A stretch of 64,000 bases of DNA from Candidatus Rokuibacteriota bacterium (lineage in GTDB: Bacteria; Methylomirabilota; Methylomirabilia; Rokubacteriales; CSP1-6): assembly GCA_003220225.1 (NCBI GenBank), contig QHRU01000049.1:21430-85429 (forward strand), read 5' to 3'. Numbering within the stretch: the stretch's first letter is position 1; every line of letters begins with the position of its first letter. Under the pieces are notes generated by a model. That model ran no database searches. It was not told the origin of the DNA and worked only from the letters and a program-made list of their open reading frames with translations. A program made the position numbers and the translations under genes. Shown piece by piece: positions 1,968 to 28,296 of this stretch.

Positions 1968-2836
1968 TCCCATTCACCAAGGGGCACGGGCTCGGCAACG
2001 ACTACATCGTCATGGACGAGGCCGACCTGCCGCGTCCGCTCGACACGCGGGCCATCGAGCGCGTCTGCGACCGCAACTGGGGCGTCGGCTCCGACGGCAT
2101 CTTGCTGAAGGTGCCGTCGACCCGTGCGGACTTCGGGCTGCGCATCTTCAATCCCGACGGCAGCGAGGCCGAGAAGTCGGGCAACGGCCTCCGCATCTTC
2201 GCCAAGTACCTGTGGGACCACGGGCACGCGCGCGGCCGCACGACGTTCAGCGTCGACACGAAGGGCGGCGTGGTGGAGTGCACGTGCCACGAGCGGGACG
2301 GCCGCGTGAGCTTCGTCACCGTCGAGATGGGCACGGCGAGCTTCCGCTCCTCGGCGATTCCGATGACCGGCCCCGACCGCGAGACGGTGGCGGTGCCGCT
2401 CGTGCTGCCGGACGGCGGCAAGGTCACGGCCACGGTCGTGTCCGTGGGCAACCCCCACTGCGTCGTCTTCGTGGACCGTCTCGACGAGGCCGAGGCCAGG
2501 CGCGTCGGCCCGCTGCTCGAGCGGCATCCCGTGTTTCCCCAGCGCACCAACGTGCAGTTCGCGCGCACGGCCGGACCCGACACGCTCGACATCCTGATCT
2601 GGGAGCGCGGCGCCGGCTACACGCTGGCCTCGGGCTCGTCGTCCTGCGGCGCGGCGTCGGCGGCGGTGAAGAACGGCCACTGCCGCCACGGGCGCGTCGC
2701 GGTGCGGATGCCCGGCGGCACGCTCGTCATCGAGGTGCGCCCCGACTGGTCGCTGCGGCTCGAGGGACCGGTGGAGGAGGTCTACACGGGCGCGCTGTCC
2801 GACGAGTTCGCGCGCGACTGGCTCGGCGGGGCGTGA
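1964..2836 (+). CDS. dapF: diaminopimelate epimerase
   Basis: MIPFTKGHGLGNDYIV N-terminus, SGNGLR and CGNPHCVVFV motifs. ATGA start/stop overlap with upstream gene. About 290 aa. Confidence 0.85.
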   Translation: MIPFTKGHGLGNDYIVMDEADLPRPLDTRAIERVCDRNWGVGSDGILLKVPSTRADFGLRIFNPDGSEAEKSGNGLRIFAKYLWDHGHARGRTTFSVDTKGGVVECTCHERDGRVSFVTVEMGTASFRSSAIPMTGPDRETVAVPLVLPDGGKVTATVVSVGNPHCVVFVDRLDEAEARRVGPLLERHPVFPQRTNVQFARTAGPDTLDILIWERGAGYTLASGSSSCGAASAAVKNGHCRHGRVAVRMPGGTLVIEVRPDWSLRLEGPVEEVYTGALSDEFARDWLGGA

Positions 2837-3417
2837 AGCGCGTCTGCGTCTTCGCCGGCTCCAACGCCGGCGCCCGGCCGGAATACGCGGCCGCCGCGCG
2901 CGCGCTGGCCGCGGCGTGCGCGACGCGCGGGCTCGGCATCGTCTACGGCGGCGGCTCCATCGGGCTCATGGGCGTGCTCGCCGACGCGGCGCTGGCGGCG
3001 GGCGTCGAGGTCGTCGGCGTGATCCCGCGGCCGCTCGCCACGAAAGAGCTCGCGCACGCGGGCCTCAGCGAGCTGCGCCTCGTCGAGAGCATGCACGAGC
3101 GCAAGGCCACCATGAATTCGGTGGCCGACGGCTTCATCGCGCTGCCCGGCGGTCTCGGCACTTTCGAGGAGGCGCTGGAAGTGCTCACGTGGTCGCAGCT
3201 CGGGATTCATGCGAAGCCGGTCGGGGTGCTGAACGTCGAGGGCTACTACGACGGGCTGTTACGCTGGCTGTCGCATGCGGTCGGCGAGGGGTTCGTGCGC
3301 CGCGAGCACCTCGGGCTGCTGCTGTTCGCCGACACGCCCGCCGAGCTGCTCGACCGCTTCGCGGCCTGGACGCCGCCACCCGGCCCACGTCCCTGGCTGC
3401 GTCCGACCCAGGCGTGA
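2833..3417 (+). CDS. LOG family protein (cytokinin riboside 5'-monophosphate phosphoribohydrolase-like, TIGR00730)
   Basis: GTG start overlapping dapF stop (GTGA). Motifs VFAGSN...GIVYGGGSIGLMG...ALPGGLGTFEE. Confidence 0.8.
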   Translation: MKRVCVFAGSNAGARPEYAAAARALAAACATRGLGIVYGGGSIGLMGVLADAALAAGVEVVGVIPRPLATKELAHAGLSELRLVESMHERKATMNSVADGFIALPGGLGTFEEALEVLTWSQLGIHAKPVGVLNVEGYYDGLLRWLSHAVGEGFVRREHLGLLLFADTPAELLDRFAAWTPPPGPRPWLRPTQA

Positions 3418-3542
3418 CAGGCGCTGAAGTCTCACTCCGCGTGGTGGCGGACCGGATGCTCGCGCTGCCGCGGAACGCGCAGGCCGAGGGCGCGCGCGAC
3501 GGTCTGACCGTCGTGCCCGAGTGAGCGCTGCGGCTCCGCCGC

Positions 3543-4064
3543 CTACGGTCGCACGACGAGGCGCGGGTGCCGCCGCCAGAAGTAGGCGGACATCGCGCCC
3601 GCCGCCAGCAGATTCGCGACGAGCACCGAAGGCCAGGGGATCAGGCGCAGCACGGGCGCCGCGAAGACGAGCGCGGCGGCGACGAAGCCGAACTCGAAGA
3701 CGACGGCGAACAGGAGCAGCCCGAAGCCCCACGACGGATTGCGCTCCACCATCCCGAGCAGCCGCGACGCGATACCGCCCAGCGCCGCGAAGACCAGCAT
3801 GTGGACCCACGTGAACATGCCGACCATCTCCAGCGAGACGGAGAGCGTCTCGGGCGAGCCGAGTGCCCCGCGCCGGAAGATGGCGGTGCCGAGCACGGTC
3901 GGCGTGTAGAGCGGGTGCCCGGCGGCGGTGTCGAGCAGCAGGAACCAGACCGCCACGGTGGCGGCGCCGATGACACCGGCGATCATGCCCTCCTGGTAGA
4001 GGCGCGCGGTGTCGGGGACGGGGTCGGACAGGGCGTCGACGGTCGGGGTCACGCGAGCGGCCAT
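3543..4064 (-). CDS. hypothetical integral membrane protein (4-5 TM)
   Basis: ORF with strong GC3 bias and several hydrophobic helices. No recognisable catalytic motif. Confidence 0.5.
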   Translation of the reverse strand: MAARVTPTVDALSDPVPDTARLYQEGMIAGVIGAATVAVWFLLLDTAAGHPLYTPTVLGTAIFRRGALGSPETLSVSLEMVGMFTWVHMLVFAALGGIASRLLGMVERNPSWGFGLLLFAVVFEFGFVAAALVFAAPVLRLIPWPSVLVANLLAAGAMSAYFWRRHPRLVVRP

Positions 4065-4126
4065 GATCGGCTCCTTCCCGGGTCCGATCGACCCTCTCTC
4101 TGGGACGCGCCGATTCTACTCCCGCT

Positions 4127-4279
4127 CAGTCCCAGCGAGGCTGGCGCGGCGGGGGAGGCCACGACGTGGCGCCCGGCGCGCACGCGACGTGGTACATCTC
4201 GCCGTCGAAGAAGACGAGGGTTTCGCCATCGTCGATGACGCCGCCGCACGCCGGGCAGGTGCGCTCCCGCTCGTCCATG
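4127..4279 (-). CDS. small zinc-ribbon-like protein (about 50 aa), not in ORF track
   Basis: Hand translation of minus strand: MDERERTCPACGGVIDDGETLVFFDGEMYHVACAPGATSWPPPPRQPRWD. Carries a CxxC...HxxC arrangement. Strong GC3. Sits between the GAF sensor and the membrane protein on the same strand. Confidence 0.4.
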
Positions 4280-4330
4280 CATCCAGTCTACCGCCGGGGT
4301 GAAGCCCGGCTGGGGGCGCAGGTCGAAGGC

Positions 4331-5653
4331 TTACCTCGTCGGCGGGTCCGTCTCGCTCGAGCGTCGCAAGTCGAGCATCGGCGGCAGGTTCGGCGCGGTG
4401 TCCAGATCCTCGAGCCGGGTGATCTGCGTCATGTGCCCGACGATCTCCCCGATACGTGCCGCGGCGGCGAGGATGCGGTCGAAGCGATGGCGCTCCGCGA
4501 CACCGGGTCGGTCCGCGAGTATCTGGGCGTGCCCGACGATGATCGCCAGGGGATTGTTGATCTCGTGAGCGGCGGCGTTCGCCAATCGCGTCACCGCCCG
4601 AAGCCCTTGAGCACGCACCTCCGCCTCGAGCAGTCGCGCGTTCTGCAGGAGAATCGAGGCTTGCTGGCCGATCGCCTGGAGAAGCGCGATCTCCCCCACC
4701 GACAAGCGGCGGGGCTGCGTCCACCAGACGAGGTGCAGGACGCCGGAGACCTGGGCGCCGCCGAGCAGGGGAATGAACGCGCAGGAGCGATGGGGGAATC
4801 GCGCGAAAAAGCTGTTGGCGAACCGCGCGTCGTTCGGCGCGTCGTCGCTCCACACGACCTGGCCTTGCTCGAGCAGGGCGTCGCTGAAGCGCGCGTCCAC
4901 GAGGGGCAACCGCGCCTCCCGGAGTCCCTCACGCACCGCCTCCGGGATGTGGTAGCCGGCGACGGGCGACACCTCGGCGCGCTGACGGTCGATCACGTAC
5001 GCCGCCACGGTGTCGGCGCCGGTCAGGCGACCGAGCTCGCGACAGATCAGCCGCAGCGCGCCGGTGAGATCGCTGGTGGCGCCGAGGATTCCTGCGACGG
5101 ACACCAGCGCGGCCATCTCGCGGACCCGGGCGTCGAGCGCGCTGCGGCTGGCTTCGAGCTCCTCGCGCTGCCGGCGCGCCTCGTTCTGTCGGCGAGCCTC
5201 CTCGAGCACGGCCGCGGCCTGCCCGACGAAACCCGCCACACCCTTCCGCTGGGTCGCCGTCAGCTCGATCGGAGCCCGGGCGTCGAGCGCCAGGACCCCG
5301 AGGAGCCGCCCGTCAACCACCAGCGGTGCGCCGGAGAAGCTCGCAAGACCGTGACTCTTGCGCCAGTCGTGTCCGACAAAACGGGCATCGCGGAAGACGT
5401 CGGAAATCTCGAGCGGCGCGCGGTTGGCGGCGATCCATCCCACGGCGCCGACACCGTACGGGAGCGTCACCAGCGGGAGGCTCGCGGCGCCCTCGCCGAG
5501 CGCCGCGGCCACGCTCAGCGTGCGAGTGCGTTCGTCGGCCGACCACAACGTGACGAGTGCGACGCTGGTCAGCGCCGCGAGGTCGCGCGCGACGTGCTCC
5601 AGCGACGTCTTCGCCTCGGGTGGGAATTGCGCGCCGGGCGGCTCGACACTCAT
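4331..5653 (-). CDS. GAF-domain sensor protein with C-terminal HisKA (DHp) domain but no HATPase_c domain
   Basis: Start placed at the internal ATG (MSVEPPGAQ...) because the upstream 270 aa of the track ORF is high-GC artifact overlapping another gene. Two GAF-like regions, then H-box AAHEINNPLAIIVGHAQIL, then only about 70 aa before the stop. Confidence 0.7.
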   Translation of the reverse strand: MSVEPPGAQFPPEAKTSLEHVARDLAALTSVALVTLWSADERTRTLSVAAALGEGAASLPLVTLPYGVGAVGWIAANRAPLEISDVFRDARFVGHDWRKSHGLASFSGAPLVVDGRLLGVLALDARAPIELTATQRKGVAGFVGQAAAVLEEARRQNEARRQREELEASRSALDARVREMAALVSVAGILGATSDLTGALRLICRELGRLTGADTVAAYVIDRQRAEVSPVAGYHIPEAVREGLREARLPLVDARFSDALLEQGQVVWSDDAPNDARFANSFFARFPHRSCAFIPLLGGAQVSGVLHLVWWTQPRRLSVGEIALLQAIGQQASILLQNARLLEAEVRAQGLRAVTRLANAAAHEINNPLAIIVGHAQILADRPGVAERHRFDRILAAAARIGEIVGHMTQITRLEDLDTAPNLPPMLDLRRSSETDPPTR

Positions 5654-5661
5654 GCTGTCGC

Positions 5662-6810
5662 TCAGCGCGCGGCGACGCGGTCGGCGAGGCGCGCGGCGAG
5701 CCATCCGCCGGCCACGGCCGCCGCGAGCGTGAGCGCGATGCCCACGGCCATCGTCGCGGCGTCCGGATGCACGTGAGCGAGCGCCCTGGAGCCGAGCATC
5801 CGCGGCAACATGACGATCAGCAGGCCGGCGCCGAACGCGAGCGAAGCCGCGCGCGGACGGCGGCGCGCGTCGACGAGCGCCAGCAGCGCGGCGCCCACCA
5901 CCGGGAAGACGCGCGGCAGCGCGGAGCCGCCGACCGGCGTGCCGTTGCGGCGCGCCATCTCGTGCGCCACCGCGATCGGCGACGTGCCGTCGTCGGCGGC
6001 CAGCACCTCCTGGATTGTCGAGGCGGGCTGCAGCAGCGCGAAGCCCGCGCCGGCGACAGCGACGATGGAGAGCTGCGTGAGAAAGCCCAGGAGCACGACG
6101 GCCACCGGCGCCCAGCGCAGCCCGGAGAGCCGCGCGCCCAGCACCAGGCTGAACGCGAAGAGCAGCGCGGCCAGCACGGGCCACGTGAAGAAGGAGAGGC
6201 CGCCGTGGAGGAACGCGATCCGCCACGACGGATCGGTGGCGATCGCGAACGTCCCGAAGAGAAACGTGGTGGCCAGCGCCAGCGCGAAGGCCCGGGCCCA
6301 CGACCCTACCGGCCACGCCTCGCGCGCGATCAGCAGGCAGGCGAGCGTGTTGACCTGGGCGCCCAGGAGCCCGAGCAGATGCGGCGGGCTCCACAGCGTG
6401 ATGTCGGGACCGAACAGCCGGTGCGAGAGGTCGTCGATCGGCGCCGCCACGATCACGAGCGCCATGCCGAGCCACGCCAGGTGGAAGCCGCGCGTGCCGA
6501 CGAGGCCGAGGAGCCTGATCGCGCCCGGTGTGGGCCCGCGCTCGCGCGCCGTCCAGCTCTCGACGGCGATCACGCCGAGCGACACGATGACGGCCACGGC
6601 CACCGACGCGTAGATGAGGATGTGCGGCGCGATCCAGAACGAGTCGCGGCCGATCAGCACGTGCCAGCGGATGTCCCAGCCGAGCCCCCAGCCCGCGGTG
6701 AGCTTGCTCGTCAGCAAGATGCCCAGCGCGGCGCGGCGGAGGGCGACGACGTCGACGTCGGTGGCGACGCCGGGGACGGCGAGGGCGCCGGGGCGGCTCA
6801 TGGGCCGCAT
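5662..6810 (-). CDS. polytopic membrane protein of unknown function (about 10 TM)
   Basis: 382 aa, highly hydrophobic. Start overlaps the PolX stop and the end abuts the GAF sensor start, consistent with operon membership. Confidence 0.55.
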   Translation of the reverse strand: MRPMSRPGALAVPGVATDVDVVALRRAALGILLTSKLTAGWGLGWDIRWHVLIGRDSFWIAPHILIYASVAVAVIVSLGVIAVESWTARERGPTPGAIRLLGLVGTRGFHLAWLGMALVIVAAPIDDLSHRLFGPDITLWSPPHLLGLLGAQVNTLACLLIAREAWPVGSWARAFALALATTFLFGTFAIATDPSWRIAFLHGGLSFFTWPVLAALLFAFSLVLGARLSGLRWAPVAVVLLGFLTQLSIVAVAGAGFALLQPASTIQEVLAADDGTSPIAVAHEMARRNGTPVGGSALPRVFPVVGAALLALVDARRRPRAASLAFGAGLLIVMLPRMLGSRALAHVHPDAATMAVGIALTLAAAVAGGWLAARLADRVAAR

Positions 6811-6811
6811 T

Positions 6812-8527
6812 CTACCCGCGACGGGTCCAGGCCAGCAGGTCGTCGAGCGAGCGCGTGTTGAGGATCTGCGCGGGGCCGAGCCAGGCGCGCCGGGCGACGG
6901 CGACGCCGAGGTCGACGTTGTCGAGCTCGGAGAGGTAGTGCGTGTCGGTGCTGATCGAGAGCGGCACGCCTGCCTCCGCCGCGCGCCGCGCGTGGACGTC
7001 GTTGAGGTCGAGCCGCTCGGGTGAGGCGTTGATCTCGACGGCCTTGCCGTGGGCGCGCGCGGCGGCGAAGACGGCGTCGAGGTCCACGTCGTAGGGCTCG
7101 CGCGAGCCGAGCCGCCGGCCGGTGGGGTGGCCGAGGATGTCCACGTGGGGACTCTCGAGCGCCCGCACGATGCGCGCGGTCATCGTCGCGCGGTCCTGCT
7201 TGAAGCGCGAGTGCACCGAGGCGACGACCACGTCCAGCTCGGCCAGCACCTCGTCGGGAAAGTCGAGACGGCCATCCTCGAGGATGTCGCACTCGCTGCC
7301 GGCCAGGATCCGGATCGCGTGACGCGCCTGCACCGCGCGGATCTCGGCGCGCTGCTGGCGCAGGCGCTCCACGCTGAGGCCCTGCGCGATCGTGAGCGAG
7401 CGCGAGTGGTCGGACACGATGACGTACTCGTAGCCGCGGGCCTCGGCCGCCTCGACGAGGCGCTCGAGCGGATGGTGGCCGTCCGACCACTCCGTGTGGT
7501 CGTGAAGGTCGCCGCGTAGCTGCGCGCGCTCGACGAGCGCGGGCAGCCGGCCTTCCCGCGCCGCGTCGATCTCACCGCCATCCTCGCGCAGCTCGGGCGG
7601 GATCCAGGGCAGGCCGACGGCCGCGTAGACGTCTTCCTCCGTCTCGCCGGCCACGCGCGCGCCCGTCGCCTCGTCGAACACGCCGTACTCGCTGATCTTC
7701 AGCCCCCGGCGCACGGCCATCTCGCGCAGGCGCACGTTGTGGGCCTTGGAGCCCGTGAAGTACTGGAGCGCGGCGCCGAACGCCTCGGGGGCCACCACGC
7801 GCAGGTCGACGGCGAGGCCGTCCTGGTGCCGGACGGAGGCCTTGGTCTCGCCGCGCGCGGTGACCTCGGCCACCGACGGCAGGCTGACGAGGGTCTCGAT
7901 CACGCGCGCGGGCGCCGTGGAGGTGACGAGGATGTCGATGTCCTTCACCGTCTCGCGCATGCGCCGCAGCGAGCCCGCGATCTCCAGCCGCTCGACGCCG
8001 CCGTGCGCGCTCAGCGCGAGCGCGACCTGTCGTGCCACCTCACGTGCGGCTGGCAGCAGCGCGCGCGCGCGGCCGGCCCTGTGCTGCGCGATCGCCTTCA
8101 GGAGGTTCTCGCAGGTCTTCTTCTGGATGCCGGCCACGCCGATGATCTGGCCGCTGCGGCACGCCGCTTCGAGCCGCTCGATGGTGTCGATGCCCGCGAC
8201 CTCCCAGAGCGCGCGGGCGGTGCGCGGGCCGAGGCCCCGGACCTCGAGCAGGCTCAGGAAGTCGGGCGGCAGGTTCTCACGGAGCCGCTCGAGCAGCTCG
8301 ATGCGGCCGGTGGTCAGATACTCCTCGATGCGCGCGCCGATCTCCTTGCCGATGCCCGGCAGGGCCCGCAGACCGCCGCGCGCGGCGACGGCGGCGACGT
8401 CCTCCGAGAGGGTCTCCAGCGTCTGGGCGGCGCGCTGCCAGGCGCGGATGCGGAAACGGGACTCGTCGCGCACCTCGAGGAGGCTCGCCATCTCGTAGAA
8501 GAGCCGCGCCAGCTCGAAATTCGTCAC
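6812..8527 (-). CDS. polX: DNA polymerase/3'-5' exonuclease PolX (family X polymerase with C-terminal PHP domain)
   Basis: GTG start at VTNFELARLFYEMASLLE, matching the PolX N-terminus. HhH/GIGKxIA motifs. Pol beta-like core. C-terminal PHP motifs GDLHDHTEWSDG...VIVSDHS...HSRF...ISTDTH. Confidence 0.85.
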   Translation of the reverse strand: MTNFELARLFYEMASLLEVRDESRFRIRAWQRAAQTLETLSEDVAAVAARGGLRALPGIGKEIGARIEEYLTTGRIELLERLRENLPPDFLSLLEVRGLGPRTARALWEVAGIDTIERLEAACRSGQIIGVAGIQKKTCENLLKAIAQHRAGRARALLPAAREVARQVALALSAHGGVERLEIAGSLRRMRETVKDIDILVTSTAPARVIETLVSLPSVAEVTARGETKASVRHQDGLAVDLRVVAPEAFGAALQYFTGSKAHNVRLREMAVRRGLKISEYGVFDEATGARVAGETEEDVYAAVGLPWIPPELREDGGEIDAAREGRLPALVERAQLRGDLHDHTEWSDGHHPLERLVEAAEARGYEYVIVSDHSRSLTIAQGLSVERLRQQRAEIRAVQARHAIRILAGSECDILEDGRLDFPDEVLAELDVVVASVHSRFKQDRATMTARIVRALESPHVDILGHPTGRRLGSREPYDVDLDAVFAAARAHGKAVEINASPERLDLNDVHARRAAEAGVPLSISTDTHYLSELDNVDLGVAVARRAWLGPAQILNTRSLDDLLAWTRRG

Positions 8528-8572
8528 CCCATGCAATTTACCACCCGGGCGCGTGATACACTCCGCTCGCCA

Positions 8573-8944
8573 GTGATCGCGACGTGGTGCTGGGACCTCC
8601 TCGAGCCGTACCTCCGGCGCAACCTCACCAACCGCGGCGTCGAGCGGCCGACGCGCAAGCACGTGCTGGAAGAATTCGCGCGCGTGTGGCCCGACGTCAC
8701 GGCCACCCTCGGCGTGCAGGAGCCCTACGCCGGGACCATCCGGTTCAAGTGGCTCGTGCGCCTGCCGTCGGCCGACGCGGAGCCGTTCCTCGACGACCCC
8801 GAGGGCTGGATCGCCGCGCGCTACGGCGGCGGCAAGTTCAAGCTCAACCTGCACCACGGCATGCACTTCGTGAACACGAAGAATTTCAAGCCCGCGGGCG
8901 AGCCGCGCTGGGCCGAAGTTCCGGCGTTGGACCTGGACGCGTAA
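8573..8944 (+). CDS. hypothetical protein
   Basis: Track ORF trimmed to an in-frame GTG where GC3 bias begins. The upstream ATG codons are AT-ending and overlap the PolX 5' end. No recognisable domain. Confidence 0.4.
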   Translation: MIATWCWDLLEPYLRRNLTNRGVERPTRKHVLEEFARVWPDVTATLGVQEPYAGTIRFKWLVRLPSADAEPFLDDPEGWIAARYGGGKFKLNLHHGMHFVNTKNFKPAGEPRWAEVPALDLDA

Positions 8945-11360: not shown

Positions 11361-12493
11361 TGACGTTGCGGCTCGACTGGGAGGCCGCGTACCTCGACGG
11401 CCGGACGGCGGCGCGCCGCCGCGCCACCGTCCACATCACGCGCACGGGGCTCGACATCACGCTGCCCGAGAGCGGCGCGCGGCTGTTCTGGCCCTTCCGC
11501 GAGATCCGCCAGACGCAGGGCACCCACGCCGGCGAGCAGGTGCGGCTCGAGCGCGGCGGCGAGCTGTCGGAAGCGCTGCTGATCGGCGACGTCGGCTTCC
11601 TGTCCGCGGCGCGCGCGGCTGCGCCCGAGGCGGCGCACTTCCACGAGCCCGGCCGCCGCCGTCTCCGCGTGGGGCTCACCTTCGCCGCGCTGGTGGCCGC
11701 CATCGCGCTGGCCGTCGGCATCTACTACGTCGGCATTCCGGCCGTCGCCGCGGTGGCCGCCGCGCGCGTGCCGGTGTCGTGGGAGGAGAAGCTCGGGGGG
11801 GCGATCGTCGACCACTTCGCGCCGCCGTCCGGGCGCTGCGAGGATCCCGTGCGGCAGGCGAAAATCGACGGCATCGTCGCGGCGCTGACGGCGAAGGCGC
11901 GGCCACAGCCCTACACGTTCCGGATCACGGTCGTCAACAGCAGCGTCGTCAACGCGGTGGCCGCGCCGGGTGGCCAGCTCATCCTGTTCCGCGGCCTGCT
12001 GGAGCGCACCGACAGCGCCGAGGAGCTGGCGGGCGTGCTCGCCCACGAGGTGGAGCACGTCCTGCATCGCCACGTGACGCGCGCCATCTTCCAGCAGGCC
12101 TCCACGGGCGTGCTCATGGCCGCGCTCGTCGGCGACGTTTCGAGCGTCGTCGCCTACGGGCTCGAGGGCGCGCGCACGCTCGGCGATCTCCAGATGAGCC
12201 GTGCCGCGGAGGCGGAGGCGGACCGCGAGGGGATGCGGCTGCTCCAGGAGGCCGGGATCGATCCTCAGGGGATGATCACGTTCTTCGAGAAGCTGTCGCG
12301 CCGCGAGGGCGGGCGCGGGGGCGATCCCGTGACGCGTTATCTCAGAACGCACCCCACGACAACGGAGCGGATCGCCACGCTGCGCGCGCTGGCCGCGGCG
12401 GCGCCGAAGCCGGAGCGCCGGCTCCTGCCCGACGACGACTGGAACGACGTCAAGAGCCTGTGCGGGGAGCTGCCGGCGCCGTCGCCGCGGTGA
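11321..12493 (+). CDS. M48 family metallopeptidase
   Basis: HEVEHVLHRH HExxH zinc motif. One TM helix. Annotated start lies inside the REP-like repeat, so the true start may be downstream (TTG at about 11360 or later). Confidence 0.72.
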   Translation: MGMWGPFRGPHLQLTLRLDWEAAYLDGRTAARRRATVHITRTGLDITLPESGARLFWPFREIRQTQGTHAGEQVRLERGGELSEALLIGDVGFLSAARAAAPEAAHFHEPGRRRLRVGLTFAALVAAIALAVGIYYVGIPAVAAVAAARVPVSWEEKLGGAIVDHFAPPSGRCEDPVRQAKIDGIVAALTAKARPQPYTFRITVVNSSVVNAVAAPGGQLILFRGLLERTDSAEELAGVLAHEVEHVLHRHVTRAIFQQASTGVLMAALVGDVSSVVAYGLEGARTLGDLQMSRAAEAEADREGMRLLQEAGIDPQGMITFFEKLSRREGGRGGDPVTRYLRTHPTTTERIATLRALAAAAPKPERRLLPDDDWNDVKSLCGELPAPSPR

Positions 12494-14816
12494 TGAGCCC
12501 GCGCACGCGCCACGGCAGGGCGGGCGTCTCGGTCAGCCGCACCGCGAGCGGGGAGAGCGCGTCGTCGATCGCGTTCGCGATCGCCGCCGGCGGCGAGATC
12601 GCGCCGCCCTCGCCGAGCCCCTTCATGCCGAGCGGGTTGCGCGGCGAGGGGAACTCGAGGTGGACGGTCTCGATCGCGGGCAGGTCGCTCGCGACGGGCA
12701 CCGCGTAGTCCATCAGGCTGCCCGCCAGGAGCTGTCCCTCGGCGTCGTAGGCCATGTCCTCGAAGAGCGCGCCGCCCACGCCCTGCGCGACGCCGCCGTG
12801 CACCTGGCCGTCGACGATGATCGGGTTGATGACCTTCCCGCAGTCGTGCGCGACGACGTAGCGCACGAGCTTCACCGCGCCCGTGTCGCGATCGACGTCC
12901 ACGATCGCGACGTGCACCGCGCTCGCGAAGGTCACCGTCGGCACGTGGTGGTACGCCGTCGCGTCGAAGTCCGGGGTGACGACGCCGGGCCTGGCGAAGG
13001 TCGGGAGGGCCGCCTGCACGACGCGCGCGAAGTCGACGGCGGAGGCCGGCGCGCCGCGGACGAACACGCGGCCGTCCTCGATCTCGAGGTCCTGCGGCGC
13101 CGCCTCCAGCAGCGCGCCCGCCGCCGCCAGCACCTTCGCGCGCACCCGCCGGGCGGCGTCGACGATCGAGTTGCCGGCGGTGACGCCGCTGCGGCTCGCG
13201 AACGTGCCGACGCCGAAGGGCACCCCGGCCGTGTCGCCGCCGGTCACGGTCACCCAGTCGAGCGGCACGCCGAGCGCGTCGGCGGCGACCTGGGCGAACG
13301 ACGTCTCGTGGCCCTGGCCCGAGCACACGGCGCCCGTGGCCACCCGCACGCGGCCGGCGGCGTCGAGGGTGACGCGCGCGCCCTCGAAGGGGCCGATGGC
13401 GGTACCCTCGACGTAGCCGGAGATGCCGATGCCGCGCCAGACCCCGCGCGCGCGCAACGACTCCTGCTCCTTGCGGACGCGGTCGTACTCCGCGGCGGTC
13501 AGCGCGGACTCGAGCGCGGCCGGGAAATCGCCGCTGTCGTACACGAGCGGGTTGCCGTCGCGGTACGGCATCCCGAAGTCGAACGGCAGCTCCTCGGGGC
13601 GGATGTAGTTCTTCCGGCGCACGTCGGCGGGATCCAGCCCGAGCCGGCGCGCCAGACAGTCGACGGCGCGGTCCATCGCGAACACGGTCTCGGGCCGGCC
13701 GGCGCCTCGATAAGGAGCGTTCGGCGTCTTGTTCGTCACGACGGCTCTGACGTCGACTTTCATGTCGCGTATTCGATAGGGCCCGATCAGATGAGCCACG
13801 GTGTTGTAGGGCAGGACGACGCCCCAGACGTTGTAGGCGCCGAGGTCGAGCCAGATGCGGTCGGCGAGGCCGACGATGGTGCCGTCGCGCCGCGCGCCCA
13901 GCCGGATCGTGTGGGTCTGGTGCCGCGCGTGCGCCGCGCCCATCATGTGCTCGCGCCGGTCCTCGATCCACTTGACGGGCCGGCCGAGCGCGCGCGCGGC
14001 GATGGGGATCAGCGCGTCCTCCGGGTAGCCGGACGCCTTGGTGCCGAAGCCGCCGCCGAGGTCGGGCGCGATCACGCGGATGCGGTGGGGCAGCAGCTCC
14101 AGCGCGGTCACCAGCCCCTGCTGGACGAAGTGCGAGACCTGCGTGCTGTTCCACGTCGTGAGCGTCCCGTCGCGCCGGTCCCACGCGGCCACCACGCCCC
14201 GGCCCTCGAGCGGCATGCCGACGTAGCGCTGGATGCGGAACGTCTCCTCGAGCACGACGTCGGCCCCCGCGAGCGCGCGCCCGGCGTCGCCGATGGCGTG
14301 GCTGAAGCCGACGGCGACGTTGGTGCCCCAGTCGGGGTGCACCAGCGGCGCGCCGGCCTCGCCGGCGGTGAGCATGTCCACCGCGGGCGGCAGCGGTGCC
14401 CACTGCACCTCGATCGCCTCGACGGCGTCCTCGGCGCGGCCGCGGTCGTCGGCCACCACCATCGCCACGATCTCGCCGACGTGGCGCACGCGCTGCGTGG
14501 CGAGCGCGTACTGCGGGGCCTGGCGGATGTCGAACTTCACGGCGGCGGCGAGGCCGGGCGGCGGGGCGCCGAAGAGCGGCAGCGGCTTCATCCAGCGCGC
14601 GAGGTCGGCGTGGGTGAAGACGGCGACGACGCCGGGCATCTTCTTCGCGCGCTCGGTCCGAATCGCGACGATGCGCGCGTGCGCGTGGGGCGAGCGGAGG
14701 AAGGCGGCCTGCAGGAGGCCCGGCAGCGTCACGTCGTCCACGAAGCGGCCCTCGCCACGGAGGAAGCGCGGATCCTCCCGGCGAAGGACGGCGGCGCCGA
14801 AATACTTGGCGCCCAT
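12450..14816 (-). CDS. xanthine dehydrogenase family molybdopterin-binding large subunit, form II CoxL-like (AYRGAGR active-site loop)
   Basis: 788 aa. RREDPRFLRGEG N-terminus. Motifs GGGFG and PYRGAGRPE. MoCo-binding C-terminal GEGG motif. No adjacent FAD or FeS subunit genes. Confidence 0.85.
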   Translation of the reverse strand: MGAKYFGAAVLRREDPRFLRGEGRFVDDVTLPGLLQAAFLRSPHAHARIVAIRTERAKKMPGVVAVFTHADLARWMKPLPLFGAPPPGLAAAVKFDIRQAPQYALATQRVRHVGEIVAMVVADDRGRAEDAVEAIEVQWAPLPPAVDMLTAGEAGAPLVHPDWGTNVAVGFSHAIGDAGRALAGADVVLEETFRIQRYVGMPLEGRGVVAAWDRRDGTLTTWNSTQVSHFVQQGLVTALELLPHRIRVIAPDLGGGFGTKASGYPEDALIPIAARALGRPVKWIEDRREHMMGAAHARHQTHTIRLGARRDGTIVGLADRIWLDLGAYNVWGVVLPYNTVAHLIGPYRIRDMKVDVRAVVTNKTPNAPYRGAGRPETVFAMDRAVDCLARRLGLDPADVRRKNYIRPEELPFDFGMPYRDGNPLVYDSGDFPAALESALTAAEYDRVRKEQESLRARGVWRGIGISGYVEGTAIGPFEGARVTLDAAGRVRVATGAVCSGQGHETSFAQVAADALGVPLDWVTVTGGDTAGVPFGVGTFASRSGVTAGNSIVDAARRVRAKVLAAAGALLEAAPQDLEIEDGRVFVRGAPASAVDFARVVQAALPTFARPGVVTPDFDATAYHHVPTVTFASAVHVAIVDVDRDTGAVKLVRYVVAHDCGKVINPIIVDGQVHGGVAQGVGGALFEDMAYDAEGQLLAGSLMDYAVPVASDLPAIETVHLEFPSPRNPLGMKGLGEGGAISPPAAIANAIDDALSPLAVRLTETPALPWRVRGLITAATAPAAPRTGS

Positions 14817-14992: not shown

Positions 14993-15460
14993 CTACTCGA
15001 CCTCCACGATCATCTCGATCTCGACCGGAATCTGCATCGGCAGCGAGCCCATGCCCACCGCCGAGCGCGCGTGCTTGCCGATCTGCTCGCCGAACACCTC
15101 GACCATGAGGTCGGAGAAGCCGTTCATGACCTTGGGCTGCTCGCCGAAGTCCTCGGTGGCGTTCACCATGCCGAGCACCTTCACGATGCGCTTGACCTTG
15201 TCGAGGCTGCCGAGCTGCGTTCGCACCGTCGCGAGGAGGTTCAGCCCGACGTCGCGCGCGACCTGCGCGCCCTGCTCGGTCGAAAGGTCCTTGCCGACCT
15301 TGCCGCGCGCCGTCATCTTGCCGTCCGCGGTGCGCGTCGGCCCGTGGCCCGACACGAACAGGAGATTGCCGACGCGCACGGCCCCGACGTAGTTCGCGAG
15401 TGGCGTCGGCGGCGTGGGGAGCGTGATGTTCTTGGCCTTGAGATTGGCTTCTGCGCCCAT
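14993..15460 (-). CDS. RidA family protein (YjgF/TdcF reactive-intermediate deaminase)
   Basis: 155 aa with conserved RidA fold motifs (VGMGSLP, FVSG). Confidence 0.78.
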   Translation of the reverse strand: MGAEANLKAKNITLPTPPTPLANYVGAVRVGNLLFVSGHGPTRTADGKMTARGKVGKDLSTEQGAQVARDVGLNLLATVRTQLGSLDKVKRIVKVLGMVNATEDFGEQPKVMNGFSDLMVEVFGEQIGKHARSAVGMGSLPMQIPVEIEMIVEVE

Positions 15461-21851: not shown

Positions 21852-22460
21852 CGCGACATCCGGCCGGATAGATCCTTGATCTGTCCGGCGCGGAGAATCG
21901 TGACCGTGAGCGTCGCGCCGGGACCCAGGCGTCGCAGCTCGTCGCGGATCTTCTCGTAGCTGGCGAGATAGCCGACGGGGATGAAGCCGAGCCCCTCGCT
22001 GCCGCCCGACTTCGAGATGTTGTGGCTCACGATGCCGATGACCTCGCCCGCGATGTCGAACATCGGACCACCGGAGTTGCCCTGGTTGATCGTCGCGGTC
22101 GTCTGGAAGAAGTCCGCGAGCGGCATCTGCTTGTACACGGTGTTGGCGCCCCAGCGGGCGCTGATCCAACCGACGCTCATCGAGTAGACGAGCCCATACG
22201 GCGCGCCGACGACGATGACCTGATCGCCGACGCGCACCGCGTCGTCCGACGAGATCAGGACGCCGGAGCCGACTTCCTTGACGACCTGCGCGCCGCCTCC
22301 CGTCGTCGCGTCACGCCCCGTGGCCCGAATGACGACGACCGACGGCTGGACCCTTCGAAACACGTCGCCGACCGTTTGTGCCGAGAGGCGCGGCGCCGGT
22401 GCGACCACCACCGCCACGACCATCGACGCCGCCAGCAGGGACGCGCGCACGCGCGTCACA
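21848..22460 (-). CDS. trypsin-like (S1C/DegP-type) peptidase domain protein, short, with signal peptide and no PDZ
   Basis: GTG start overlapping the upstream gene's stop. Signal peptide. GNSGGP serine motif. No obvious catalytic His, so possibly inactive. Confidence 0.5.
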
Positions 22461-24843
22461 CGGCCGCGGCGACGGGCTCCGGCACGCGCAGGCGATAGAC
22501 GCGCACCGGCTCCTCGACGTTGCGCAGCGGCACCTCGCCGAGGTCCTCGAGGCCGATCCGCGACGGCAGGCGCGCCGTCGTCGCCTCGCCGAGGTGGATG
22601 GCGTCGTCGCCCAGGGCGGCCAGCCGCGCGGCGACGTTGGTGACCGGCCCCGAGGCCGTGTAGGTCCAGCGCGTGCCGGCCGTGCCCTCGATCTTGGTCG
22701 CGCCGACCGCCGCCCGGCCGGAGTTCACGCCGACGTGCAGCGCGATCGGCTCGTCCAGCGGCTCGGCCGCGTTGATCTCGCGCGCGCGCCGCAGGAGGGC
22801 CAGCCCGGTGGTCACCGCGGAGCGGGCGTGGCGCCGGGGATCGGCGTCCTGGAAGATCACCATGAGCCCGTCGCCCGCCGTCTCGTTGACGTCGCCGCCA
22901 TTTTTCAGAATTTCGTCGAGGAAGGCGCCGAAGTAGCGCTCCACGAGCCGATCCACCGTGGCCGCGTCCAGGCGGCCGGCCAGCCGCGTGTAGCCGGCGA
23001 TGTCGACGAAGAGCACGGAGACGTCCGTCTCCCGCTTGGCGAGCTCCGGCGCGTCCGGCGCCTGCTCGATCAGCCGCTGCACGGTGCGCGGCACGAACTT
23101 CGACAGGCCCGCGCGGATCGACTCGAGGATCTGCACGCGGCGCAGGGCCGCCTGCAGCGCGTGGTAGGCGCGCGCGTGCTCGAGCGCCACCGCGCTCTGG
23201 GTGGCCACGATCTTGAGGATGCGCAGGTTCTCGGAGGTGTAGGGCAGGTCGCGCCGGCGCGGTCCGAGCACCAGCAGCGCGGTGAGCCGCTCGCGGAAGA
23301 CGACCGGCACCGCGACGTCGGCATCCAGCGCGTCGAGGTCGGCGAGACACGCCTGGCGGATGTCCTCCAGCTCCGGGTCGGCCAGCAGCGTCTCGCGCGA
23401 CAGCGGCTCGCGCCGGCCGGCCAGGCACGTGGCGAGCACGGCCTGGGCCGCGAGCCCGTCGCCGCCCCCCACGCGTCGGAACGCGCCGCGCTCGTCATCG
23501 GCGAGCAACAGCGTCACGCGCTCGGGATGCAGGATCCCGTCGACGGTGCCCCCGATCAGCGCGGCCAGGCGATCGAGCTCGAGGGTCGTGGTCATGGCGT
23601 CGGCCAGCCGCGCGAGCGCCTGCCCGGAGTCGTAGCGGGCCCGGAAGAAGAGCCGGTCGAGCAGCGCCTGCGTCCGCGCGTAGACGCGGTTCACCACGAG
23701 CACGACGATGAAGGCCACGAGCAGCGGCGCCACCACGCCCGACATGGCGAGGTCGAGCCGCGCGAAGAGCACGTTGAGCGAGGTCAGCAGGCCGGCGTAG
23801 CCGAGCGCCACCATGGCGGTGACCACCGAGTACACCGTGCCCGCGCGCACCACCGCGCGGATGTCGAAGAGCTGGTAGCGCACGATCGCGTACGCGACCG
23901 CCAGCGGAAACACGAACGCCAGCCGCCACACGTCGGCCAGGAATGGGATCTGCTCGTGGAGGACGACCTCGAGCGTCGTGCCGATGACGGGCACGAGGTA
24001 GCCGATGCCGAAGCCGGCGAGCAGCACGCGCGCCCGCTGGCGGATGAGCGGCGTCGAGCCGGTGCGCGCCGTGCTGCCGAGACCGACGAGCAGCTCGACC
24101 AGCGCGACCGTCCAGTAGATCGCGATCAGGCCGGCGGTGGCCGTCCAGGAGTCGCGCGACATCGGCGCCTGCAGCCAGAGCCAGAGCGCCGCTGACATGG
24201 CGTACGGCACCCACACCACTCGGGGCCAGCGCCGCGCCACGGCGGTGCGCTCGGGGAACACGAGCGCCAGGTGGGCGAACAGCGCGGGCCAGAACGTCCA
24301 CGCGAACAAGAACAGCTCGGTGAAGCGGTGCGTGCCCGAGAGGTCCCAGGAGCCGACGTTGACGACGACGGCGGTGAGACAGAAGGCGAGGAACAGCCGA
24401 GTGGTCGGGGCCCCGGGCCGCAGGAGCGCGACGAGGGCGCCGAGCCCGAGGACGAGGATACCGGACAGCAGGTTGTCGACGACGAAGTGCTTGAACGTCC
24501 GCAGCGTCATCTCGCGGCTGACGATCTCCTCCTCGACGAGCGACCCGCCGCGCACGAGGAGGTAGCGCAGCTTGGTGCCGGCGGGATAGCGCTCGACTTC
24601 GTGCTGCAGCTCGCGACAGGAGCTGACGAGGTGGCCGTTCACGGCGCGCACGAGGTCGAACGGCTCCACGGCCGTGCGCTGTCTGCCGCCGACGCCGACG
24701 AGGAGATTCTCCATCACCGGGAAGCCCGTCCACGGCTTGCCGATCCTGCGCCAGGCGTCGCGCGTCACGACGCCCATGAAGAGGACGGCGAGCACGATGA
24801 GCACAACGTAGGCAGACTTTTCGAGCCGCGTGCAGCGAGGCAT
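22456..24843 (-). CDS. membrane-bound class III adenylate/guanylate cyclase with N-terminal PDZ-like, 7TM and GAF regions
   Basis: C-terminal cyclase homology domain (FVDIAGYT...ETAGDGLM...). Upstream GAF-like segment. Multiple TM helices. Confidence 0.8.
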   Translation of the reverse strand: MPRCTRLEKSAYVVLIVLAVLFMGVVTRDAWRRIGKPWTGFPVMENLLVGVGGRQRTAVEPFDLVRAVNGHLVSSCRELQHEVERYPAGTKLRYLLVRGGSLVEEEIVSREMTLRTFKHFVVDNLLSGILVLGLGALVALLRPGAPTTRLFLAFCLTAVVVNVGSWDLSGTHRFTELFLFAWTFWPALFAHLALVFPERTAVARRWPRVVWVPYAMSAALWLWLQAPMSRDSWTATAGLIAIYWTVALVELLVGLGSTARTGSTPLIRQRARVLLAGFGIGYLVPVIGTTLEVVLHEQIPFLADVWRLAFVFPLAVAYAIVRYQLFDIRAVVRAGTVYSVVTAMVALGYAGLLTSLNVLFARLDLAMSGVVAPLLVAFIVVLVVNRVYARTQALLDRLFFRARYDSGQALARLADAMTTTLELDRLAALIGGTVDGILHPERVTLLLADDERGAFRRVGGGDGLAAQAVLATCLAGRREPLSRETLLADPELEDIRQACLADLDALDADVAVPVVFRERLTALLVLGPRRRDLPYTSENLRILKIVATQSAVALEHARAYHALQAALRRVQILESIRAGLSKFVPRTVQRLIEQAPDAPELAKRETDVSVLFVDIAGYTRLAGRLDAATVDRLVERYFGAFLDEILKNGGDVNETAGDGLMVIFQDADPRRHARSAVTTGLALLRRAREINAAEPLDEPIALHVGVNSGRAAVGATKIEGTAGTRWTYTASGPVTNVAARLAALGDDAIHLGEATTARLPSRIGLEDLGEVPLRNVEEPVRVYRLRVPEPVAAAV

Positions 24844-27237: not shown

Positions 27238-28296
27238 TCAGCGGGACGTGCCGGCGTCCGCCGCGCTGGATGCCTTGAGATCGAGCATGGGCGGCAGGTC
27301 GGCCGGCCAGTCCTGCGAGAGCTTGAGTCGGGCGAGGCTGTTCATCCGATCCAGGATCTCGGCGATACGCGCGATCGCCTCGCGGGACGCGTCGAGGCGC
27401 GGCTTCGTCTCCGGCGCCGCCGTGCGGGCGATGAGGTCGAGCTGGCCGTAGATGACGGCCAGCGGATTGTTGATCTCGTGGGCGGCGGCGTGGGCGAGGC
27501 TCGCCACGTGCTGCTGCAGCTCGGCCTGGCGCCGTGCCTCCTCCATCCGGCGGCGGTCGGTGATGTCGCGCGTGAAACCGCGCGTGCGCACGAAGTGGCC
27601 GTCCTCCCAGAGGGCGTTGGACGAGATCAGGACGTCCTTGATCGAGCCGTCCCTGGCGCGCATCCGCGCCTCCCAGGCGTCCACCGTCTCGCCGCGGCCG
27701 AGCCGCGCCAGGATCTCGGTGACCAGCTCGGGGTCGACGTGGAACTCGGCGATGTGATGCCCGACGTACTCCTCCACCGCGTAGCCGAGGAGATCCAGCT
27801 CGGCCTGGTTGGCGCGCAGGATGGTGCCGTCGGCCCCGATCCAGTGCAGGCCGATGACGGCGTTCTCGAAGAGCTCGGTCTCGGCGTTCTCGAAGAACTC
27901 GGCCAGCGTGCGCTCGCTGCGGAGCAGCGCCGCCTCGGCGTGTGCGCGCCTGGTGATGTCGAGCGCCACACCCAGCACCCCCACGATCCCCGCGCTGCCG
28001 GCCCGCCACGGCTCGACGTGGACCTGATAGACACGGCCCTCGTGGCGCAGCTCGTACACGGCGGGCACGCCGTCCAGCGCCGCGCGGTGGGCGGCCAGCG
28101 TCGGATCATCGGGGTCGCGCGTGCCGAGATAGTCGCTGAGCGACAGACCCACGACCTCGTCGGCGCCCAGCCCCAGCGCGACGAGGCCGGCGCCGCGCGC
28201 GTAGTGGAAGCACAGGTCCCGATCGGTGGCCCACACGATCGCCGGCAGCTGTTCGAGCAGCAGCCGGAAGTCGATCTCCTTCAGAGCGTCCATCAC
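27238..28296 (-). CDS. tandem-PAS sensor protein with C-terminal HisKA (DHp) domain but no HATPase_c domain (paralog of 4331-5653)
   Basis: Two PAS regions. H-box AAHEINNPLAVIYGQLDLI. About 70 aa after the H-box and ending with the same ...DLPPMLDLKASS tail as the GAF paralog. Confidence 0.7.
   Translation of the reverse strand: MMDALKEIDFRLLLEQLPAIVWATDRDLCFHYARGAGLVALGLGADEVVGLSLSDYLGTRDPDDPTLAAHRAALDGVPAVYELRHEGRVYQVHVEPWRAGSAGIVGVLGVALDITRRAHAEAALLRSERTLAEFFENAETELFENAVIGLHWIGADGTILRANQAELDLLGYAVEEYVGHHIAEFHVDPELVTEILARLGRGETVDAWEARMRARDGSIKDVLISSNALWEDGHFVRTRGFTRDITDRRRMEEARRQAELQQHVASLAHAAAHEINNPLAVIYGQLDLIARTAAPETKPRLDASREAIARIAEILDRMNSLARLKLSQDWPADLPPMLDLKASSAADAGTSR

Follow-up and report, generated by a model that had tools for sequence, protein, structure and literature searches.

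Two minus-strand genes in a 64,000-nucleotide stretch of Candidatus Rokuibacteriota DNA from contig QHRU01000049.1 (hereafter the window, meaning the whole stretch analysed) encode sensor proteins that have the dimerisation and histidine-phosphotransfer (DHp) domain of a histidine kinase, recognised by the Pfam profile HisKA, but no catalytic and ATP-binding (CA) domain of the HATPase_c type. Gene 1 places two GAF modules in front of its HisKA domain and gene 2 two PAS domains; both proteins continue past HisKA with a short C-terminal tail and then stop (Table 1). A reading made from the sequence alone had described gene 1 as having two GAF-like modules, a canonical HEINNPL H-box and no HATPase_c boxes, and gene 2 as sharing this truncated layout and the terminal motif. 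For gene 1, Pfam and a six-frame motif scan agree; for gene 2, the same two methods bear out the description, as does the 44% identity (E 3e-17) between the last 101 residues of the two products, a segment that includes the H-box and the LPPMLDL(R/K)xSS ending. The early stop reported for gene 1 is real, although it lies 77 residues from His363 rather than about 70 past the H-box. At its N-terminal end, residues 16-196 of the gene 1 product partially match the NCBIfam models of NifA, GPMC regulator and PtsP in their GAF regions. The public record for gene 1 is PYM28048.1, a 457-residue version with a different start that falls into the same cluster at 90% identity (‘hypothetical protein DMD80_13185’, Candidatus Rokubacteria), and that for gene 2 is PYM28067.1 (‘hypothetical protein DMD80_13285’, Candidatus Rokubacteria bacterium).

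The absence of an ATPase domain was examined at the level of the proteins and of the surrounding DNA. Pfam finds HisKA in both products and no HATPase_c match in either down to E<=1, and NCBIfam gives only partial matches, which end at the DHp region of the complete kinases ZraS, CreC, AtoS and LvrB. The six-frame motif scan of the window located HEINNPL twice and PPMLDL twice, all within the two genes and none elsewhere, and no real gene with the N/G1/G2 box combination. We also built local profile hidden Markov models (HMMs) from three Rokubacteria CA domains and two receiver (REC) domains of related loci; their own positives score >200 bits, and when the full six-frame translation of the window was scanned with stops read through and HMM filters off, both the CA and the REC models returned negative scores only. 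No REC domain, hence no cognate receiver gene, lies anywhere in the 64-kb window. Gene 1 is followed by a 50-residue open reading frame (ORF) and a gene for a 173-residue membrane protein without a Pfam match, and gene 2 by genes for a protein with an alanine-racemase-fold/D-serine-dehydratase domain and a phosphofructokinase. The uniformly negative HMM scores and these unrelated genes rule out a CA domain hidden downstream or in another frame, of which the sequence-only reading had likewise seen no sign. The 440- and 351-residue products were recovered at identical length from 67-69 contigs of independent assemblies; no assembly or frameshift artefact can therefore account for them. In addition, 124 metagenome-index blocks list a protein identical to the 440-residue gene 1 product, with the same neighbours in the four places shown. 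Because HATPase_c, the defining feature that a canonical sensor histidine kinase carries on the same polypeptide as its DHp domain, was tested for and is absent, neither gene encodes a canonical kinase.

Table 1. Positions of the two genes, their domains and motifs, and the genes upstream of gene 1 (coordinates of the window)
Feature	Position	Strand	Detail and basis
Gene 1, GAF-GAF-HisKA-tail	4331..5653	(-)	440 aa + stop; ORF, translation, Pfam
Gene 1, GAF module 1	5159..5608	(-)	~residues 16-165, approximate boundaries; Pfam GAF in two stretches, NCBIfam
Gene 1, GAF module 2	4640..5074	(-)	residues 194-338; Pfam GAF/GAF_2/GAF_3, E down to 5.8e-26 (best GAF stretch 195-335)
Gene 1, HisKA (DHp)	4409..4591	(-)	residues 355-415; Pfam HisKA, E 7.3e-9, exceeds gathering score
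Gene 1, H-box HEINNPL	4547-4567	(-)	His363; motif scan
Gene 1, C-terminal tail	4334..4408	(-)	residues 416-440; motif scan, alignments, AlphaFold order
Gene 1, tail core LPPMLDLRRSS	4355-4387	(-)	motif scan; PPMLDL itself at 4367-4384
Gene 2, PAS-PAS-HisKA-tail	27238..28296	(-)	352 aa from GTG 28296; public calls: ATG 28293, 351 aa
Gene 2, PAS domain 1	27958..28272	(-)	residues 9-113; Pfam PAS, E 6.2e-13
Gene 2, PAS domain 2	27547..27870	(-)	residues 143-250; Pfam PAS_4, E 2.9e-19, PAS_9; TIGR00229
Gene 2, HisKA (DHp)	27325..27498	(-)	residues 267-324; Pfam HisKA, E 1.5e-9, exceeds gathering score
Gene 2, H-box HEINNPL	27460-27480	(-)	motif scan
Gene 2, tail core LPPMLDLKASS	27265..27297	(-)	motif scan, pairwise alignment with gene 1; PPMLDL at 27277-27294
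PolX-type polymerase with PHP domain	6812-8866	(-)	upstream in gene 1 trio
Multi-pass membrane protein	5662-6810	(-)	379-382 aa, no Pfam match; ends 8 nt before gene 1

From these two paralogues the sequence-only reading had argued for a genuine family as opposed to a truncation artefact. This conclusion holds strongly: the CA-less HisKA sensors with a conserved tail form a large family, with hundreds of homologues that share the same end and the same motif, and the two window proteins recur unchanged in many assemblies. A word-indexed search with the 101-residue C-terminal module returned 143 HisKA-only proteins, and an exhaustive profile search returned 131 clusters (50% identity) at E<1e-30 and 6080 at <1e-10. 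In nearly all of the best 150 profile matches, which range from 93 to 1274 residues, the match sits at the extreme C-terminus; the few apparent exceptions are low-complexity read-through with no CA domain. We then considered genomic loci, scanning one genome per species for AA[AS]HEINN and retaining the best 80 of 269 relatives. Apart from loci truncated by the end of a contig, the ORF always terminates 75-112 residues past the histidine. Among 78 full-length members (from 76 Rokubacteria/Methylomirabilota genome loci and the window), Pfam detects HisKA in all 78 and HATPase_c in none. The sensor modules in front of this uniform C-terminal part are diverse, comprising PAS (62 members), 5TM-5TMR_LYT (27), GAF (14), MASE1 (7), dCache (5), DUF4118 (4), REC (2) and HAMP (1). 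Several genomes contribute two to four paralogues each within the 80 retained loci alone.

The 80 loci come almost entirely from metagenome-assembled genomes (MAGs) of Candidatus Rokubacteria/Rokuibacteriota/Methylomirabilota, with a handful from oddly labelled soil bins whose sequences are Rokubacteria-like. By its sequence matches the family is confined to Rokubacteria/Methylomirabilota. The odd bins are SMAG soil-MAG contigs assigned to Dormibacterota, Acidoferrum, Verrucomicrobiia and Limnocylindria (loci L013, L038, L056, L063 and L085). The C-terminal sequence of L056 is essentially that of the Methylomirabilota-bin loci L051 and L052, and that of L085 is similar to L043, L063 and L080; these matches suggest that the odd loci are mis-binned Rokubacteria contigs and do not reflect a wider distribution.

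Two parts of the C-terminal module are highly conserved, the H-box and the tail. In unfiltered alignments of 26, 108 and 78 sequences the residues H-E-I-N-N-P-L are invariant, and the upstream LRxVAxLAxAAA is nearly so. In CrdS, two paralogues and HK853, the acidic residue at His+1 proved essential for the kinase and dispensable for the phosphatase activity, and the Asn or Thr at His+4 essential for the phosphatase and dispensable for the kinase activity (Willett and Kirby 2012, PMC3510030). Both the His+1 Glu and the His+4 Asn are invariant in the family; the residues with which a DHp domain handles phosphoryl groups have therefore been retained. The tail, whose conservation among homologues the sequence-only reading had left to be checked, is indeed conserved: its consensus is (L/V)-P-x-(M/I)-L-D-(L/I)-x-(R/K)-S-S, its Leu and Asp do not vary in the alignments of 26 and 108 sequences and reach at least 90% conservation in that of 78, and the first Ser that follows them is conserved at >=90% in the alignments (~95% by sequence logo). 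It begins 57-63 residues past the histidine, and most members end 3-27 residues further on. The family, tail included, is under strong purifying selection. Among the paralogues of one genome, DHp and tail together are 37-69% identical (mean 49%).

Examination of complete kinases from the same bacteria suggests where this tail comes from. Past helix alpha2, canonical Rokubacteria kinases encoded in the flanks of L035, L064 and L006 read ...DVSRIIAGKLELERFALDLVPVVQEAV, ...LAFSRKQVANLRVLDLAEVIQSM and ...LALSRIGREGRATEVVSFDEVVDVV, respectively. When 21 such canonical segments and 30 family segments were aligned with MAFFT, the family (T/S)R(L/I) fell on the canonical SR(I), and the family (M/I)LD(L/I) shared columns with the (V/L)(D/N/E)L that opens the canonical CA domain. 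This co-linearity, together with the position of the motif, suggests that the tail is what remains of the DHp-CA linker and the first strand of the CA domain, and that the protein stops where the first CA helix would begin. In a comparison of the family profile with the canonical DHp+CA alignment by hhalign (probability 97.9), the match ends with helix alpha2.

An AlphaFold2 monomer model of the module made from the 108-sequence alignment is a confident helical hairpin, with a mean predicted local distance difference test score (pLDDT) of 89.6; the tail, with block means of 87-88, is ordered too, residues 86 and 97 pairing in a beta-bridge and LRRSS forming a short helix. Foldseek with this model retrieves the DHp domains of ZraS, YF1, GacS and ERS1. 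A sequence search of solved structures likewise returned DHp domains of complete kinases only (LvrB, ThkA-like 3a0r, YF1, KinB and ZraS) and no solved CA-less relative. The closest by sequence is LvrB of Leptospira (PDB 8vc9; E 7.3e-11 over alpha1-alpha2), whose DHp domain has the AHEINNPL H-box of the family; in contrast to the family, LvrB is a complete kinase that has a CA domain and is controlled by REC (PMC13269768), and the alignment ends before the tail.

The sequence-only reading had also called for stand-alone HATPase_c proteins or response regulators tied to the family; in the window, the 80 loci and a CA-profile search, neither is consistently linked to it. The nearest neighbours across the 80 loci are MFS, luciferase-like, PQQ-dehydrogenase, Rieske, PFK, EamA, YjgF and MoCoBD genes, and a conserved neighbouring partner gene was rejected since nothing recurs beyond orthologous synteny. 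There are a few links to receivers: the members at L038 and L042 have an N-terminal REC domain of their own, and in one orthologous group (L035, L037, L075) the family gene adjoins a divergent single-domain REC gene. At L035 and L037 a convergent hybrid kinase (GAF-HisKA-HATPase-REC) also lies beside the family member; a hybrid kinase, a family member and a single-domain REC protein are the genes that a multistep phosphorelay dependent on a His-phosphotransfer protein would require. The L035 hybrid kinase is 1027 residues long, and the 3' end of its gene shares 14 nt with the family gene. It belongs to a signalling cluster around a GAF-PAS-HisKA-tail member (L035 3-7372, syntenic in L037) that also encodes a HATPase_c_2-SpoIIE protein, a 134-residue RsbT/RsbW-like GHKL Ser-kinase-like protein, an RsbR-like RsbRD_N-STAS protein and the divergent REC protein.

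Candidates for a stand-alone ATPase did not survive inspection. No real CA-only gene is present in the window or in the flanks of the 80 loci; the sole sighting, an ORF at L006 1.8 kb from the family gene, is the C-terminal piece of a frameshifted GAF-HisKA-HATPase kinase. At that locus (L006 4300-6610, in a long-read MAG) a canonical multi-GAF HisKA-HATPase kinase beside the family member is split across at least three frames, and frameshifts of this kind yield spurious ‘HATPase-only’ public proteins (P0254, and probably P0259, P0290 and P0344). Searching for stand-alone CA proteins with the three-sequence Rokubacteria CA profile gave long-contig matches that are frameshift or fragment pieces with junk termini, which are uninformative for or against an ATPase acting in trans. 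Finally, none of the top 150 profile matches is a canonical kinase with the DHp type of the family (AAAHEINNPL ... ITRLE).

The idea of descent from a truncated kinase is based on the way the tail lines up with the linker and opening CA strand of canonical kinases. On this view, the family appears to be a sensor expansion specific to Rokubacteria/Methylomirabilota, derived from a canonical PAS/GAF kinase whose CA domain was deleted just after its first beta-strand. Because they have no CA domain, the proteins by themselves cannot be expected to autophosphorylate from ATP. They retain a sensor region (GAF-GAF or PAS-PAS in the window), a presumably dimerising DHp hairpin with the His, the Glu, the His+4 Asn and the His+5 Pro, and after it the ~25-residue tail. 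We infer, giving the idea an even chance, that they serve as signal-gated phosphotransfer or phosphatase modules acting on receiver domains. Their substrates would be REC domains phosphorylated by other kinases, which they might dephosphorylate through the His+4 Asn under control of the signal; alternatively or in addition, the histidine could act as a phosphotransfer intermediate (Asp-P to His to Asp), similar in function to Spo0B or ChpT. The sensor domains would determine which way or how fast the reaction runs, and the tail could be a cap or docking element near the histidine. Many inputs may converge on one or a few shared partners, as suggested by the unusual conservation of DHp surface and tail among paralogues with different sensors.

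Several observations weigh against this proposal. The homology of the tail to a CA strand is by position and motif, and the hhalign match stops at the end of alpha2. The invariant His+1 Glu is the residue for autophosphorylation and was dispensable for phosphatase activity in the CrdS/HK853 study, so that it suits phosphorylation in trans at least equally well. The baseline for calling the DHp domain unusually conserved is small, consisting of 7 canonical fragments of mixed origin. The family genes are mostly orphans among metabolic and transport genes, with a REC gene adjacent in only 3 of the 80 loci. In addition, the structure model that shows the packing of the tail is that of a monomer.

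The strongest competing explanation, which we consider unlikely though by no means far-fetched, is that the histidine is phosphorylated from ATP by a CA domain in trans, supplied either by a separate ATPase or by a full-length kinase that pairs with the sensor as a heterodimer; the tail would then dock the foreign CA domain, possibly by strand complementation. The isolated DHp domain of EnvZ can reportedly be phosphorylated by an isolated CA domain, which speaks for such an arrangement, and natural split kinases exist, namely Rv0600c/Rv0601c of M. tuberculosis and CheA3/CheA4 of R. sphaeroides. For the former, a review confirms no more than the gene trio, with Rv0600c and Rv0601c as two sensor-kinase genes beside tcrA. 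Those systems place phospho-acceptor and ATPase modules on different polypeptides, just as would be the case here, but their halves are co-encoded or lie in one chemotaxis cluster, whereas the family has no ATPase half nearby or in the CA-profile search. The invariant His+1 Glu favours phosphorylation in trans (PMC3510030), as does the tail, which is exactly the segment that tethers and opens a CA domain and has a conserved Leu and Asp; furthermore, the similar DHp domains of the paralogues would let one ATPase serve many sensors. However, no CA-only gene adjoins gene 1 or gene 2 or lies in the 64-kb window or in the limited flanking sequence of the 80 loci. The CA-profile search yielded fragments and frameshift pieces only, a result compatible with an unlinked partner, and the top 150 profile matches offer no obvious heterodimer partner. 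The sequence-only reading had named both a phosphotransfer/phosphatase module and a partner of a separate ATPase, and these two remain the leading hypotheses.

A quite improbable alternative is that these are non-catalytic histidine pseudokinases, in which no phosphoryl group passes through the histidine, the DHp domain is a dimeric scaffold that sequesters response regulators or modulates kinases or other targets, and the tail is an output peptide, possibly phosphorylated on Ser at its (R/K)SS. The orphan genes with varied metabolic neighbours fit this idea, and so do the basic-Ser-Ser motif of the tail, with its highly conserved first Ser, and the stressosome-type genes (RsbR-like STAS, RsbT/RsbW-like GHKL, HATPase_c_2-SpoIIE) beside one orthologous group. 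That link, however, is confined to L035 and L037, 2 of 80 loci, and the invariance of the H-box His, Glu, both Asn and Pro across hundreds of diverged members is hard to square with an unused phospho-histidine. Known pseudo-kinases typically lose or replace H-box residues; DivL, for example, has a Tyr for the His. About equally doubtful is a more specific scheme, ‘many sensors, one catalytic partner’, in which dozens of CA-less DHp sensors in Rokubacteria would plug by their tail, the retained first CA strand, into a single trans partner, be it a strand-complemented ATPase (making a split GHKL kinase) or one receiver/hybrid-kinase hub shared by all, where the family would take the place of Hpt. 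That the genes are instead canonical kinases cut short by an error in sequencing or assembly, or pseudogenes decaying after recent mutation, is exceedingly improbable given their recovery from independent assemblies, the common end point and conserved tail of over 130 diverged clusters (50% identity), and the unrelated genes downstream, where no frame has CA-like coding potential.

Proteins of this general design have been described before, and the family is a member of an architectural class, ‘HisKA, no HATPase’, that is already known. Galperin et al. 2018 (PMC5847659) reported archaeal ‘nonenzymatic HK-like proteins’ that consist of sensors and a C-terminal HisKA domain with a conserved histidine but no HATPase, with up to 7 per genome, and proposed phospho-acceptor, phosphotransfer or phosphatase roles; P2CS labels such archaeal proteins ‘possible incomplete histidine kinase’ (via PMC5847659). 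Incomplete kinases without one or the other domain are also recognised in P2CS (PMC2716373) and in a 2026 preprint (bioRxiv 10.64898/2026.02.27.708494). The Rokubacteria family shares with the archaeal proteins the sensors, the C-terminal HisKA, the lack of HATPase and the several copies per genome. In contrast to those examples, which come from Archaeoglobi and Methanomicrobia, it is bacterial, restricted to one phylum and defined by AAAHEINNPL and a (L/V)PxMLD(L/I)x(R/K)SS tail; the portions of the archaeal report available to us mention no conserved C-terminal tail. Direct common descent of the two groups is unlikely, and the match in class is architectural. Our literature searches returned nothing specific on this bacterial clade, its restriction to Rokubacteria/Methylomirabilota, its conserved tail or Rokubacteria signalling, and as far as we could find the clade and the tail are previously undescribed.

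Other phosphotransfer proteins provide functional parallels. Spo0B of Bacillus and ChpT of Caulobacter are dimeric helical-hairpin proteins with a phosphorylatable histidine that do not autophosphorylate and instead shuttle phosphoryl groups between receivers; both keep a degenerate CA-like alpha/beta domain of full size but lack sensor domains. The family differs in having a tail of only ~25 residues, elaborate sensors, a match to the HisKA profile and a canonical H-box. Because they have no pseudo-CA domain, its members do not belong to the Spo0B/ChpT family, although by analogy they may work in a similar way, and the set of genes at L035 and L037 resembles CckA-ChpT-CpdR in its logic. The isolated DHp domain of EnvZ (‘domain A’) is said to have phosphatase and phosphotransfer activity without a CA domain. 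Domain A and the mutants of Willett and Kirby (PMC3510030) are engineered pieces or point mutants of complete kinases, whereas in the family the CA-less state is natural and conserved.

The surroundings of the two genes contain further features. Gene 1 is the last of a tightly spaced same-strand trio (5662-8866, minus) with the PolX-type polymerase and the membrane protein; the trio may be an operon, and the membrane protein could be functionally tied to the gene 1 sensor. The ORF 53 nt downstream of gene 1 (4126-4278, minus; its product starts MDERERTCPACGGVIDDGETLVFFDGEMYHVACAPG) has a CxxC...HxxC pattern resembling a small zinc ribbon, gives only a weak Pfam match to DUF5939 (E 0.007) and is absent from the gene calls of public pipelines. 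About 2.4 kb from gene 2, a further GAF-based signalling protein of 795 residues (22456-24843, minus) carries a GAF domain and a class III adenylate/guanylate cyclase domain as well as a membrane region at its N-terminus. Elsewhere in the window, which has a G+C content of ~72%, a molybdopterin-binding oxidoreductase gene (12450-14816) and a YjgF-like gene (14993-15460, minus) lie side by side, 177 nt apart. They share 75-79% identity with genes of a Rokubacteria MAG (L015) that flank a family member there (2524-6837). The CA-less sensor is missing from the window genome at this syntenic site, and family members have therefore been gained or lost between related genomes. Judged by gene size alone, a similar arrangement (~155-175, ~365-430 and ~780-800 residues for the upstream, family and downstream products) recurs at L010, L012, L020, L029 and L048.

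Proteins annotated as histidine kinases that lack an ATPase are usually written off as incomplete or as truncation artefacts, but across this entire uncultured soil phylum they have been retained and have multiplied, to at least ~130 clusters at 50% identity with every common sensor type. Although the class was known, the phenomenon is clean, large in scale and experimentally tractable. A kinase annotation (EC 2.7.13.3) is inappropriate for these genes, and NCBI indeed calls both window proteins hypothetical; the tail motif offers a simple diagnostic for the clade and a handle for pulling down partners. If the proteins are signal-gated phosphatases or phosphotransferases, Rokubacteria would integrate their many inputs through receiver dephosphorylation or relay and not through kinase activation. 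If an ATPase acts on them in trans, they would be a natural example of split histidine kinases on a large scale, and if many sensors share one partner, the tail would be a new, transferable docking module for phospho-signalling.

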